From Minisyncoccia bacterium (lineage in GTDB: Bacteria > Patescibacteriota > Minisyncoccia > Phycocordibacterales > UBA918): a DNA stretch of 51,690 nucleotides. Where the stretch lies: assembly GCA_964229335.1 (NCBI GenBank), contig CAXRCZ010000005.1, positions 1 through 51,690 of the forward strand, written 5' to 3'. The notes below the pieces were generated by a model. It saw only the letters and a program-made list of their open reading frames with translations. It was not told the origin of the DNA and ran no database searches. Positions 10,569-50,936 of this stretch are shown here, piece by piece (position 1 is the stretch's first letter; each line of letters starts with the position of its first letter). The translations under genes and the position numbers were made by a program.

Positions 10569-10740
10569 GCGGAGAGTGAGGGATTCGGTCAGGAATAAAT
10601 TTCTCAGAAATTTTTCACGACCCTGACTCGCTGACAAGCCCTCTCTTCGTTCGTCTTGTGTACCAGCTCCGTCTTTCGAATCCCTCACTCTCGCGCTCGC
10701 GCAAGCGAAAAAAGTCCTTTCGGACTTGTTTCGGTGCTCG
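10569..10740 (-). repeat. tRNA-Ser 3'-associated element: direct and inverted copies of the tRNA 3' end enclosing hairpins
   Basis: gcggagagtgagggattcg at 10569-10587 equals 10740-10758; inverted 18-mer at 10675-10692; terminator-like hairpin at 10708-10727. Confidence 0.85.
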
Positions 10741-26440: not shown

Positions 26441-27664
26441 TTATTCTAGCACTGCATTTTGTTCAATAATTTCTTTATACACGTACGCAGAAGGTCGAAT
26501 CGTACGTTCTAGAGTGTCGTAATTAATTTCCACTAATCCAAATCTTTTTTCAAAGCCGAGCGCCCACTCGTAGTTGTCTAAGAGCGACCAGTACATGTGA
26601 CTTCTGACATCTATTCCTTCATCTATTGCTTTCCAGGTAGCAGCTACTTGCTTGCGAATATATTCAGCCCGATCAGAATCGTCTTCATCGGCAATACCAG
26701 ATTCCGAAACAAACAAAGGTTTTTTGTATCGAGATAGCATTTTTAGTGCATTATAAATGTGTTGTGGTGCAAAGTTCCAATCCATATCGGTCTTTTTCCA
26801 AGCTCTTCTATCACCAAACTGCGTATAAAAGTAGTAATTTAATCCTATAGAGTCGCAATATTTGGCTGTGCGGCGCATAAATTTGTGCGTCCAAACATAA
26901 TTAGCAAACAAGGCTGCTAGCTTGTTTAGAGGATTCCAGTTCGCGTCAAATACGATAACGTGTTTGACTACACTGACTTCAAGCTGTGAATTAGCTTTTT
27001 TAATATATCGGTAGGCTTCATTATGAGCTAAAGCCAAATTCTTCATGACTCGTAAATAAGTAAATAAAGGACCTAGGCCTTTTTGTGGTTTTGCCTCATA
27101 CGACCGACCAGAGTTAGTGATTGAAACCATGTCTGTTAGAGAGAAACGTTTAAATGGTGGCCAGGTTCCTCGCAGCCAGCCGTTGCTACCAACCACATTA
27201 GGTTCATTCATGGTAGAAAAATGACTACACAAATCTCCAAGTTCAGACGCTACAAACGCACAGTAGCGGGCAAAAATTTGCGGTGCATCTTTGCGTTCAA
27301 ATCCACCACTCTCCGAAAACCACAACGGCAAGGTAAAGTGCCACAACGTAATGAATGGTGTGATGTCTCTTTCTTGTAATGCTTGGAGTACTTCGCGATA
27401 ATGCTCTATTGCCTCGCTATCAAATTTCCCTTCTTCTGGTTCAATACGAGCCCATTCCACCGAGAATCGATGGGCGTTGTGTCCAAGTTTTTTCGCAATA
27501 TCAAAGTCCTCTTTGTATCGATTATAGTGGTCGCAGGCTCTACCGCATGCAGGCACTCGCCCCTCTCTAGCTGCTTCAGCCCAGTCACAATTCTCAATAC
27601 CACCTTCTACTTGGTAGCTGGCTGTAGCTGCGCCCCATAGAAAACCCTTTGGAAATTCTTTCAT
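26441..27664 (-). CDS. Glycoside hydrolase family 1 (beta-glucosidase)
   Basis: FLWGAATASYQVEG, RFSVEWARIEP, TMNEP, VSESG, YWSLLDNYEW; start MKEF at 27664. Confidence 0.95.
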   Translation of the reverse strand: MKEFPKGFLWGAATASYQVEGGIENCDWAEAAREGRVPACGRACDHYNRYKEDFDIAKKLGHNAHRFSVEWARIEPEEGKFDSEAIEHYREVLQALQERDITPFITLWHFTLPLWFSESGGFERKDAPQIFARYCAFVASELGDLCSHFSTMNEPNVVGSNGWLRGTWPPFKRFSLTDMVSITNSGRSYEAKPQKGLGPLFTYLRVMKNLALAHNEAYRYIKKANSQLEVSVVKHVIVFDANWNPLNKLAALFANYVWTHKFMRRTAKYCDSIGLNYYFYTQFGDRRAWKKTDMDWNFAPQHIYNALKMLSRYKKPLFVSESGIADEDDSDRAEYIRKQVAATWKAIDEGIDVRSHMYWSLLDNYEWALGFEKRFGLVEINYDTLERTIRPSAYVYKEIIEQNAVLE

Positions 27665-27672
27665 ATGCAAAT

Positions 27673-27810
27673 TCACTGTATCTTACAGATACTGTACACC
27701 TTGTCGCTACTTTGCTCCAAGTATTCGCAAAGTTGCTGGCAAGGCCTTGCGAAAGCGTCCCACGCTTTCTCACCCCACAGGAAACCGTTTGGAAATTTTT
27801 TGTCAGTCAT
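27673..27810 (-). pseudogene. Duplicate GH1 5' end (MTDKKFPNGFLWG) running into a hairpin insertion
   Basis: 27773-27801 matches 27633-27661 at 25/29 nt; ATG 27810 lies 6 nt after TGcTATACT; ORF ends at TGA 27673. Confidence 0.75.
27677..27772 (-). mobile_element. Miniature hairpin element, TCTGTAAG family, copy 1
   Basis: CCTTG..GCAACTTTGC-GAATACTTGGA-GCAAAGTAGC..CAAGG-TGTACAGTATCTGTAAGATAC; shares loop and tail with 50850-50913. Confidence 0.6.
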
Positions 27811-34443: not shown

Positions 34444-34630
34444 AAAAGTAAAATAATTGTAAGTAATGATACGGATGTACCAGTAATTAGAGTAGCTCCA
34501 ATTATATGAGCTGTCTAGCTATGGTACAGTGCTGCCATGAACAAAAAACTGACAGCCGGCGCATTTATCGCCATTCTTATAGCCATATTTGCCGCTATTG
34601 GCATATTTTAGATATGCGATATAGTACTAA

Positions 34631-34815
34631 TGAGCGCTTGAGCGACCATTGCGGCTAGTAGTGTCGGATCAGCATGCCGATGCGAATACCGCGAGTGAGA
34701 TCTCCTCTTGCTTTGCCTGGTGCCAATAGTCCCGGTAAGAGACGCGACCACTTGAACCGGACATTCTGGTACACGGCGGCCGTAACTACAACGGTCCAGT
34801 CGGCCCAAGCGCTCA
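34631..34815 (+). ncRNA. ssrS: Probable 6S RNA
   Basis: 185 nt; closing stem TGAGCGCTTG/CAAGCGCTCA; central bubble GCCG-ATGCGAATACCG-CGAGTG opposite CACTTG-AACCGGACATTCTGGTACA-CGGC, resembling the GCCGAU..AUACC and CUUGAACC elements of enterobacterial 6S; TATAGT upstream and terminator downstream. Confidence 0.7.
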
Positions 34816-34822
34816 CCCCCAC

Positions 34823-34846
34823 CCGCCACCATAGTGGCGGTTTTTT
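34823..34846 (+). terminator. Terminator of the 6S-like RNA
   Basis: ccgccac-cata-gtggcgg-tttttt. Confidence 0.85.
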
Positions 34847-34850
34847 ATAT

Positions 34851-34874
34851 AAAAAGCCACCGCAAGCGGCAGCT
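34851..34874 (-). terminator. Terminator of the minus-strand structured RNA
   Basis: Minus strand agctgccgc-tt-gcggtggct-tttt. Confidence 0.8.
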
Positions 34875-34875
34875 G

Positions 34876-35092
34876 GTGAGAATAAGTGGGTTTAGGCTTG
34901 GAAGCTGTTGCTCCCATGTTCAGATGGACTCTCAAGCCACCCTACTCAAGGCTCTGTCGGTCACCCGGTATACAGTCTCACTCATCACCTAGGGGTGAGT
35001 TCTTGTTTGACTCTCAAGCGCTGGCCTATTCAAAAGAATCGCCGCGGCGGCCGCTAACGACCACCTTTTGGTCTCTTCCCACTCATTCCCAC
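34876..35092 (-). ncRNA. Unidentified structured RNA of about 215 nt
   Basis: 15-bp closing stem GTGGGAATGAGTGGG/CCCACTTATTCTCAC whose mismatches are G-U only on the minus strand; several internal hairpins; own promoter and terminator. Confidence 0.7.
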
Positions 35093-35097
35093 AATTG

Positions 35098-35125
35098 AGT
35101 TTACTCTTTTAAACTTTTACGTCAA
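35098..35125 (-). promoter_or_regulatory. Sigma70 promoter for the 215-nt RNA
   Basis: TTGACG (35125-35120)-16 nt-TAAACT (35103-35098), 5 nt before the closing stem. Confidence 0.6.
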
Positions 35126-35157
35126 TTAGTTTGCCGTCTGAGACAATGCTGGAACTT

Positions 35158-35784
35158 TTATACATCAGGAAACCTATCCAAAAACCGTTCAGCGTGCGTA
35201 TAAGTCTTATGGCCCCATTCAGGAAACAGATTCCCAAACACAATTCGCTCTCCATCTTTTCCTGCGATAAACATAACTCTTTCGAATGGATACTGCGGTA
35301 TAGCTTTTAAAGCTGAATTTATCTGCTCAAATTCATCTTTGGAGATAGATATTTCTCCTCTCATTAATAAAGCTAGGACTCCGCTACCACCTGGAGTATA
35401 TTTTTTTGGAATCTTAGAGGTTAAATACTCTAAAAGATTCGCTACCCCCTTCTTTTTTGTTAAGAAAAACTTTTTTAACTGAAATGCTGAAGCTTTATGC
35501 TTTCCTCTACTCGATAAATCTAAATCTTCCGGAATCAGATAGACATCTATATCATGATCTTCTTCAATTTTGTTCCTGAGGACTTCTACAATGTTTTCAT
35601 CTTTAGTTAAGGACTCTTTAGCAGGAAGTGCTACTTTTAATTTTTCTCCAGTCTCCTTGGTGTGGAACTTAATCAAAATTAGTGCCAAGCCAAGTTCGTA
35701 ATCCTTACTCTTATCAATATTTTTGCTACCAGCAAGATACTTTTCTATCTCAGCAGTTGTTAAAATTAGGTAGTCTCGTCTCAT
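35158..35784 (-). CDS. AT-rich orphan protein, possible PD-(D/E)xK-type nuclease
   Basis: 208 aa, visibly AT-richer than neighbours; E..., DIDVYL..., FQLKK; lies just 3' of the tRNA-Gln remnant. Confidence 0.6.
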   Translation of the reverse strand: MRRDYLILTTAEIEKYLAGSKNIDKSKDYELGLALILIKFHTKETGEKLKVALPAKESLTKDENIVEVLRNKIEEDHDIDVYLIPEDLDLSSRGKHKASAFQLKKFFLTKKKGVANLLEYLTSKIPKKYTPGGSGVLALLMRGEISISKDEFEQINSALKAIPQYPFERVMFIAGKDGERIVFGNLFPEWGHKTYTHAERFLDRFPDV

Positions 35785-35814
35785 ATAAAATATCTGACTG
35801 AAAGACAGGGATTC

Positions 35815-35910
35815 AATTCTTACAGAATCTGTGCCGCGTTTGGATATTTTATATCGTACCTCATAAAATATCTCAAACCGCTTCTAAAATGATTTCCCAA
35901 ATCATTTTAG
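35815..35910 (-). mobile_element. Miniature hairpin element, TCTGTAAG family, copy 2, in the T-loop of a degenerate tRNA-Gln copy
   Basis: GTTTG-A-GATATTTTAT-loop-ATAAAATATC-CAAAC..GGCACAGATTCTGTAAGAAT, plus hairpin CTAAAATGATTT-GGG-AAATCATTTTAG. Confidence 0.6.
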
Positions 35911-35996
35911 CCCCAATGTTAAGTGCCAGAAACTTGCATTCCTACTTTCGAGTGAGCGAGCGAAGTAAAAGAAGTATTTAGAATTCACATTCACTG

Positions 35997-36067
35997 CTGC
36001 CGGGCAGGGATTCGAACCCCGGTGACAAGTGCCAGAAACTTGCATCCTACCACTAGATGACCCGGCA
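35997..36067 (-). tRNA. tRNA-Gln(CTG)
   Basis: TGCCGGG/CCCGGCA acceptor stem, CAAGT-TT-CTG-GC-ACTTG anticodon arm, GGTTCGAATCC. Confidence 0.95.
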
Positions 36068-50714: not shown

Positions 50715-50786
50715 GGGTCTATAGTTTAATTGGCAAAACAGCGGTCTCCAAAACCGCCGTTCGAGGTTCAAGTCCTCGTGGACCCG
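50715..50786 (+). tRNA. tRNA-Trp(CCA)
   Basis: GGGTCTA/TGGACCC acceptor stem, GCGGT-CT-CCA-AA-ACCGC, GGTTCAAGTCC. Confidence 0.96.
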
Positions 50787-50788
50787 CA

Positions 50789-50936
50789 TCTTTTGAAAGA
50801 GCCGACCCTTGCGGTTGGTTTTTTCTAAAGACTGCCCGAGGCTTGAAAAGGTTAATCAGATATTTTAAAAATACTTGGACTAAAATATCGATAACCTGTA
50901 CTGAATCTGTAAGCTTCAAGTCCTCGTGGACCCGCA
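50789..50936 (+). mobile_element. tRNA-Trp 3'-associated element containing TCTGTAAG family copy 3
   Basis: 22-bp direct repeat ttcaagtcctcgtggacccgca at 50767-50788 and 50915-50936; inverted T-arm fragment cgaggcttgaa at 50837-50847; hairpin and tail at 50850-50913. Confidence 0.7.

Follow-up and report, generated by a model that had tools for sequence, protein, structure and literature searches.

The three hairpin motifs of this window, the whole 51,690-nucleotide stretch of a Minisyncoccia contig that was analysed, are confirmed as copies of one gene-less insertion element of about 90 bases with folded DNA. The element is almost certainly mobile, since empty and filled alleles, empty paralogous sites and nested copies all exist. 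It is undescribed in the searched literature, which did not extend to supplements (their repeat tables could hold it) or to most subscription journals, and its insertion signature is unusual. An earlier note had described roughly 60-nt motifs at tRNA-Trp (50850-50913, plus strand), at the GH1 5' end (27744-27682, minus strand) and at tRNA-Gln (35880-35819, minus strand). All three were recovered at these positions, and their fold energies were far better than those of shuffled sequences (DNA z -4.7, -5.6 and -6.4). The motifs are thus real, but they cover only the right-hand two thirds of an approximately 90-nt unit, to which a further hairpin (hairpin 1, TGAG...CGCA) and a linker also belong. 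The features concerned are the following.

27679-27772, minus strand: complete class A copy at the GH1 start, by fold and covariance model (hairpin 1, 27772-27748; AG linker; hairpin 2, 27745-27698; GTACAG, 27697-27692; tail hairpin TAT-CT-GTA-AG-ATA, 27691-27679)
27773-27810, minus strand: first copy of the GH1 5' end, with its own ATG, ending in TGGGG at the insertion point
26441-27664, minus strand: intact GH1 gene (PF00232) with the second start
35816-35910, minus strand: element inserted in the T-loop of a degenerate second tRNA-Gln, by fold and covariance model
35804-35945, minus strand: the degenerate second tRNA-Gln, split by the element (35945-35911 and 35815-35804)
35996-36067, minus strand: intact tRNA-Gln(CTG)
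50715-50787, plus strand: intact tRNA-Trp(CCA), whose T-loop and 3' end, from 50767, are the left arm of a class B unit
50813-50847, plus strand: inverted duplicate of the tRNA-Trp 3' end plus trailer, now decayed
50848-50916, plus strand: class B core at tRNA-Trp (hairpin 2, GTACTG, tail hairpin with one mismatch)
50917-50936, plus strand: tRNA-Trp 3' end repeated in direct orientation (displaced target)

The full unit, called class A, has a three-hairpin anatomy and reads G / TGAG-hairpin 1-CGCA, AG, hairpin 2, GTAC, two bases, three free bases, CT-GTA-AG and three complementary bases. Measured to the end of CTGTAAG, it is 68-122 nt long (median 87). Its tail thus consists of a tetranucleotide, a 2-base spacer and a perfect 5-bp stem with a fixed C-G pair and loop. 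The tetranucleotide was GTAC in 345 of 383 copies, other forms seen being GGAC, ATAC, GAAC and GCAC, a count in which the final AC was demanded by the search pattern itself. Of the window copies, the one at tRNA-Gln is class A-like and starts with the left dinucleotide CT, paired with AG, instead of TG; the one at tRNA-Trp has lost hairpin 1 and carries one mismatch in the tail stem.

Pairing in the element is strict. The proposal that stem sequences change while pairing is kept was borne out: 96.3% of cells were paired, 14 of 17 pairs had changed on both sides, and none of 500 shuffles reached this level. The tail stem covaries as proposed, its three variable pairs all being Watson-Crick in 339 of 383 distinct copies; 38 different triplets occupied the three free positions, and pairing ended after three. 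The triplets paired in none of 123 chance matches from viral contigs. Rare tail-loop variants altered both partners (A-T for C-G in four copies, C-G for T-A in one), and one variant disrupted the inner pair. The supposedly conserved AATACTTGGA loop is not part of the core; it is a swappable apical loop, found at the top of hairpin 1 in 15 copies out of 134 and at the top of hairpin 2 in 3 of the 134. The bulged A, a single bulge in hairpin 2, is one of two alternatives, tandem G.A pairs taking its place in about 35 of 134 copies. The third pair of hairpin 1 is A.G in 133 of 134 copies, G-T pairs are rare (23 of 1340 stem pairs), and 3-nt loops are found in 37 of 134 copies. The conserved A.G and G.A pairs are possible on the top strand only, which is therefore the folded strand, and we infer that the element folds as DNA rather than RNA.

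A covariance model was built from 40 copies, the GH1 copy of the window being one of them. It gave exactly three matches in the window, the three motifs (E = 3.5e-20, 3.8e-10 and 1.5e-7), and 13 matches in the source genome (741 kb, 13 contigs), which correspond to 12 distinct copies because contig C7 mirrors itself. A search with the tail pattern gave 798 matches in 82 of the 101 genomes of the source order, with a maximum of 46 per genome, compared with 23 matches for the reversed pattern in the same set. A slightly stricter form of the pattern had no match in 150 genomes drawn from across the phylum; the element is restricted to one order of ultra-small bacteria (Patescibacteria). Named records that contain it are mostly labelled Patescibacteria of Parcubacteria type, and some are Saccharibacteria according to their submitters. 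The scan of own and related genomes that had been proposed thus yielded both further copies and significant covariation. No Rfam family reached its gathering score for the element in the window and 12 further loci. Plasmids contained no match, and the pattern matches in viral contigs (1, 3 and 120) were all judged to be chance. Neither 217 cores nor 129 metagenome cores included a long or gene-bearing form, although a rare one could escape. Among 635 ORFs from 132 loci, the only proteins recurring beside copies were products of host genes. Inverted pairs of copies were considered as composite transposons and rejected: in the pairs inspected, each copy belonged to its own tRNA or gene, the two being divergent. 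Contigs from four DNA runs of one study contained no circle junction or excision joint, which at the contig level is uninformative.

The idea of a non-autonomous element family is upheld as far as mobility goes; the HUH enzyme and the ssDNA fold that went with it are still the most likely explanation. Filled and empty alleles, which were to be sought in relatives, were found at both GH1 and tRNA-Trp. Of 30 orthologous GH1 loci, 29 were readable. An insert followed the same TGGGG in 11 of them, ten times this element and once a sister core; the other 18 were empty, with a single start. The ten inserts of this element differ in hairpins and triplets. On the GH1 gene tree, insert presence needs six changes, at least four of which are forced by well-supported branches. 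The element has therefore been gained or lost at the same GH1 nucleotide at least four times among the 29 orthologues. Insert presence was somewhat clustered on the tree (10 of 500 shuffles were as low), which means that some cases share descent. Elsewhere, identical hairpin 2 sequences were seen with differing triplets and flanks, and copies were also inserted into other copies and into other repeats, at the same kind of site.

At the GH1 locus of the window, the first and second start copies differ at 4 of 26 compared bases. Across GH1 loci the two copies were 0-9 of 26 bases apart, orthologues differing by 5.1 on average, and 29 of 49 differences fell at third codon positions. Divergence close to the orthologue level, together with the third-position excess, suggests that the copies often come from different lineages or that both stayed coding. 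The frame of the first GH1 copy of the window is open through the element and stops 8 nt ahead of the second ATG. An old start open through the element and stopping near the new start was observed in 8 of 13 rebuilt genes, one case being doubtful. The start-rebuilding pattern was repeated at the genes for RNase HII and MsrA and at a P-loop kinase-like gene. The element is also present at the 3' end of a gene that we take, from its sequence, to be rplK.

The ends of the element could be mapped against empty sites. Among 176 class A copies, the gap relative to an empty paralogue was two bases in 12 of 14 mappable cases; a separate listing of empty paralogues gave a 2-base gap in 10 of 16, with 4 of the 16 not being true empty sites. 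Insertion with target duplication in the classical sense, as first supposed, is therefore incorrect: there is no flanking repeat, and two target bases are replaced. The base preceding the element was G in 133 of 134 copies, position -2 was G in 96 of 134 and position -3 a purine in 124 of 134, so that target preference is limited to RGG, without a fixed tetra- or pentanucleotide. In empty sites, the base after the target G was A or T in 9 of 12, and the target dinucleotide was retained in only 3 of 12. Right ends showed a G^A or G^T step in 303 of 337 copies, compared with 44 of the 64 possible triplets, an excess inflated by shared descent. By local GC skew, 55 of 90 class A copies lay on the same replication strand, with no clear bias.

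The survival of the host gene is explained by the confinement of the element to one copy of a short tandem duplication, in the layout A-B-element-C'-A-B-C. When flanking duplications were tabulated, as had been suggested, the 5' flank recurred downstream in 24 of 137 copies and the 3' flank upstream in 11 of 137, compared with 12 of 677 and 14 of 677, respectively, in shuffled pairings used as control. The sense orientation noted for the three motifs prevails beside tRNAs (70 sense and 10 antisense, the 80 such copies among 199) and does not extend to protein genes: among 90 class A copies in long loci, both neighbours were sense in 26 cases and both antisense in 24.

A second form, class B, dominates behind tRNAs; in it the 3' end of the tRNA is also present as an inverted copy matched to the target. 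Such inverted copies are present behind 16 tRNA isotypes (38 behind-tRNA copies). Directly before the core, 27 of these 38 have at least 8 of 11 bases antisense to the local T-loop. In the intact class B copies displayed, 11-12 nt separate hairpin 1 from the core, and the inverted copy extends past this hairpin. One core lineage can occupy several different tRNAs of one genome, each time with its own matched arms, and the copy at tRNA-Trp in the window is a decayed class B unit. Genome G019 has the same tRNA-Trp frame as the window, with a core like that of the window's tRNA-Gln copy. Across 25 tRNA-Trp loci, 7 had this core, 8 a sister core and 10 were empty (5 flagged, the rest read by eye). 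At several class B loci the fold is intact while the direct copy decays (antisense match 11 of 11, direct copy 3-6 of 12). The unit at tRNAs is about 130 nt long and has no integrase, and the same core also enters D-stems and protein genes.

Several related arrangements were noted at tRNA genes and repeats. Behind tRNA-Ser(GGA), window positions 10569-10739 (minus strand) hold a sister element with the same frame, an inverted and a direct copy of the tRNA 3' end, and another core; related cores are present on contigs C6, C7, C8 and C13. Loci L039, L056, L114, L115, L204 and L293 have a different core after hairpin 1 and the linker, which points to a left module common to sister families. At G000:C1 17630-17740, a partial second tRNA-Lys copy has hairpin 1 alone, without a core. 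A group I intron (RF00028, 67.6 bits) lies inside a tRNA gene at L004:945-1213 (G000:C6), with an antisense element copy some 250 nt away. At L008, L014 and L006, element copies sit within a different repeat, which is about 100 nt long and has terminal inverted repeats; two such composites flank a 535-aa ORF at L008. Locus L221 (G099:C11) has a reverse transcriptase gene about 50 nt downstream of a copy, and a GIY-YIG gene is 1.1 kb from that copy; the proximity to the reverse transcriptase was taken as chance.

Other observations concern the surroundings of the tRNA-Gln copy. Window positions 34620-35100, about 480 nt without a long ORF, had no match in Rfam, in their own genome or in phages; parts of the region resemble what we take to be 23S rRNA, on opposite strands, and positions 34768-34797 are matched by very abundant 31-base contigs (depth up to 6000). 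An unannotated 208-aa ORF (35158-35784, minus strand) lies behind the tRNA-Gln copy and ends in a 27-50-base signal (35110-35159), also present at two C7 sites near tRNA-Gln(TTG); this recurrence suggests that the ORF may be a gene cassette. Contig C7 of the same genome (G000:C7) is a mirror image of itself, with 20 tRNAs in symmetric pairs, and is probably an assembly artefact.

Islands and remnants integrated at tRNAs resemble the element in T-loop entry, a restored tRNA and a displaced 3' end downstream; the element differs from them in having no integrase, in its size of about 130 nt and in carrying an inverted target copy. Known REPs cluster at their RAYT gene. A REPIN is two inverted REPs around a spacer, and REPINs and BIMEs form tandem and nested arrays, as the element does. 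Classical MITEs of the DDE type have terminal inverted repeats and a target-site duplication, in contrast to the asymmetric ends and 2-base replacement seen here. The closest likeness is to the group-3 REP/TnpA-REP system, as described for REP-Mb of Marinomonas (PMC8266576): a tetranucleotide, a 2-base spacer, a perfect 5-bp stem with free lower positions and a fixed loop, a strand-specific ssDNA fold, many extragenic copies and a cut site predictable from the tetranucleotide. The element departs from group-3 REPs in its guide, which is GTAC and not GTAG (GTAC occurs nowhere in the main text of the REP catalogue, PMC3733652), in two extra hairpins with conserved G.A pairs and in not clustering around a RAYT gene. 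It further has defined ends, rebuilt host genes, a 2-base replacement and inverted copies that match the target. Like the element, REPINs and BIMEs (compare PMC3116915) are miniature non-autonomous DNA, but the element consists of a single asymmetric unit that has one tail. Target duplication is likewise absent in IS200/IS605 elements and in the gene-less forms derived from them, which choose their ends through base pairing to a guide at the hairpin foot (PMC6006769); the element, unlike them, has no fixed target tetranucleotide and replaces two bases, and no form bearing tnpA or tnpB was found. Ssn nucleases of naturally competent bacteria act with NTS/SRM repeats, which are also ssDNA hairpin repeats, and cut strand-specifically beside the hairpin (PMC11893778). 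SRM repeats keep their stem sequence and lie on either side of ssn (PMC11893778), whereas the stem sequences of the element vary freely and the element showed no connection with a GIY-YIG gene. In conclusion, the element appears to work like a REP or IS200/IS605-type ssDNA element, yet it differs from REPs and REPINs (guide, linkage, doublet), from IS200/IS605 (fixed target), from MITEs and from Ssn repeats.

We give about even chances to a reading in which the element, replacing two bases after a G, is cut and joined as folded ssDNA by a RAYT-like (Y1 HUH) transposase encoded elsewhere, host synthesis probably building the host copies; that the partner is RAYT-like at all is an equally balanced proposition. 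The substrate would be the top strand, since the conserved G.A pairs occur there alone, and the tail would serve as a REP-like recognition module in which GTAC guides cleavage at G^T or G^A. Such cuts would produce G^TGAG at the left end and GG^TTC in the T-loop; the element does begin at G^T, and the T-loop site is G^T. A target 3' end in G would be joined to the T of the element. At the right end, two target bases would have to pair with the internal triplet, a mismatch being corrected from either arm, which would account for both the 2-base replacement and the 38 triplets. With A or T after the target G in 9 of 12 empty sites and the dinucleotide kept in 3 of 12, this pairing step needs frequent correction, of which none was observed. 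The inverted copy of class B would be made by fold-back synthesis at the target, and host DNA synthesis probably builds inverted and direct host copies alike; inverted copies need templated synthesis whatever the nuclease. Insertions in single-copy tRNAs or gene starts would survive only where the gene is restored by a short tandem duplication, and the old start would often be translated through the element up to the new one.

The REP-Mb experiments (PMC8266576) provide a reference for this scheme. REP-Mb has GTAG, two bases and a perfect 5-bp stem, in which positions 2-3 can vary; activity depends on position 4 and on the loop, and is lowered by mismatches (PMC8266576). Mutation of GTAG to GTAC moved cleavage to GA and GT (PMC8266576), which is consistent with the guide rule of TnpA-REP (PMC3479197). 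The source genome has one RAYT-like gene (L028:1291-1959, contig C10 of G000), whose protein scored 36 bits against NF047646 (cut-off 80). Within the genus, a Y1 gene was found in 15 of 17 genomes with at least 12 copies and in 3 of 16 with at most 3, related genomes not being independent, so that p-values overstate this link. Y1-positive genomes had a mean of 13.4 copies compared with 4.6 in the others, with the same dependence among kin, and the link was unchanged when the RAYT-like protein of the source genome was used as query. Reverse transcriptase and GIY-YIG genes had no such link in the genus. In the other families of the order, 8 of 26 Y1-positive genomes were copy-free and 4 of 18 genomes with at least 4 copies had no Y1 match (p 0.08). 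None of 59 Y1 loci contained a copy of the element; those loci have their own perfect palindromes, and no RAYT clade tracked the element (11 changes on the tree, 13.6 in shuffles). The 9-base linker motif of the element, the only feature shared, occurred 18 times in palindromes beside RAYT-like genes, at 8 of 54 loci, and 3 times in 30 and once in 29 control loci. The proposed survey of neighbouring HUH, GIY-YIG, reverse transcriptase and recombinase genes therefore had a mixed outcome: across the genus, RAYT-like genes go with copy number, yet no copy has one next to it, and the others show no link. The RAYT-like genes (L028, L155-L168, L222-L260) are flanked by long perfect palindromes, often with AGG-(5 nt)-CCT at the apex, which look like an undescribed REP class.

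Four other explanations were weighed. A small GIY-YIG (Ssn-like) nuclease might nick beside the folded element or the target, repair synthesis with template switching then copying the element in and building the host copies. Small GIY-YIG genes are present in 100 of 101 genomes, Ssn nucleases cut ssDNA beside a hairpin (PMC11893778), and the inverted copies require templated synthesis under any model. Gene number, however, barely tracks copy number (rho 0.22, p 0.09), the motif was found in 1 of 160 element loci, a tRNA gene intervenes between gene and copy in the two close cases, and none of 30 GIY-YIG loci was flanked in the way Ssn genes are by their own repeats; we consider this route improbable. 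Spread without a dedicated enzyme, by replication slips, gene conversion and natural transformation, with the fold kept for a role in cis (tRNA 3' processing, termination or translation coupling), is no more and no less improbable. It would fit the intact fold beside decaying direct copies, the uninterrupted frame from the old start across the element (8 of 13 rebuilt genes) and the same tRNA-Trp frame with different cores in the source genome and G019. Against it, precise repeated ends at unrelated targets (G in 133 of 134, 2-base replacement) and nested copies favour a catalysed junction, and 18 empty GH1 and 10 empty tRNA-Trp alleles speak against a needed host function.

The two remaining explanations appear less probable still. 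Serine recombinases exchange at a 2-base core, and the dinucleotide replaced at tRNAs is the TT of the T-loop; the element might thus parasitise a site-specific recombinase, most likely of the large serine type, at tRNA T-loops, the replaced bases being the crossover core. Resolvase-domain matches numbered 2-7 per genome in all five genomes tested, with three clear ones in 160 element loci. Core exchange should nevertheless preserve the target dinucleotide on one side (preserved in 3 of 12) and makes no inverted copies. Such genes are most numerous (7) in G026, which lacks copies and has the same single tyrosine recombinase, and IS110 had no match in five genomes, all of which leaves this explanation little weight. 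Comparably little is given to a small catalytic RNA, a three-way junction that would self-cleave or reverse-splice into tRNAs and mRNA 5' ends and be fixed by reverse transcriptase. The sense bias at tRNAs (70 of 80), the resemblance of classes A and B to permutations of one junction and the terminal G of the element would suit it; the lack of an Rfam match, the few G-T pairs and the absence of sense bias at protein genes would not. Reverse transcriptase was found in 31 of 101 genomes, was not found in the source genome and is present in the copy-free G026, G027 and G040; moreover, a spliced intron would have no need for the rebuilding of host genes that is seen in the DNA. Likenesses to hammerhead, twister-sister, group I/II intron and integron attC structures were considered and dropped, there being no Rfam match and their core motifs being absent.

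Returning to the RAYT-like scheme, we raise as a tentative and somewhat less probable extension that the element may represent a new mode of transposition. It would be a REP-derived, GTAC-guided ssDNA element that writes its own target-matching arms by fold-back synthesis, so that a core of 90 bases could retarget itself to the end of any tRNA or gene, rebuilding the gene at which it arrives, sister cores being swapped on the same left module. The mechanism by which REPs spread is described as still to be elucidated (PMC8266576). The element has mappable ends and empty alleles, and the cut rule of its natural GTAC guide is known in vitro by mutation, so that it allows a direct test of guide-directed ssDNA insertion. 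In streamlined Patescibacteria genomes this parasite, which remodels tRNA genes and exchanges gene starts, reaches 46 copies, and it therefore bears on the evolution of these genomes and on the annotation of their starts and tRNA fragments.
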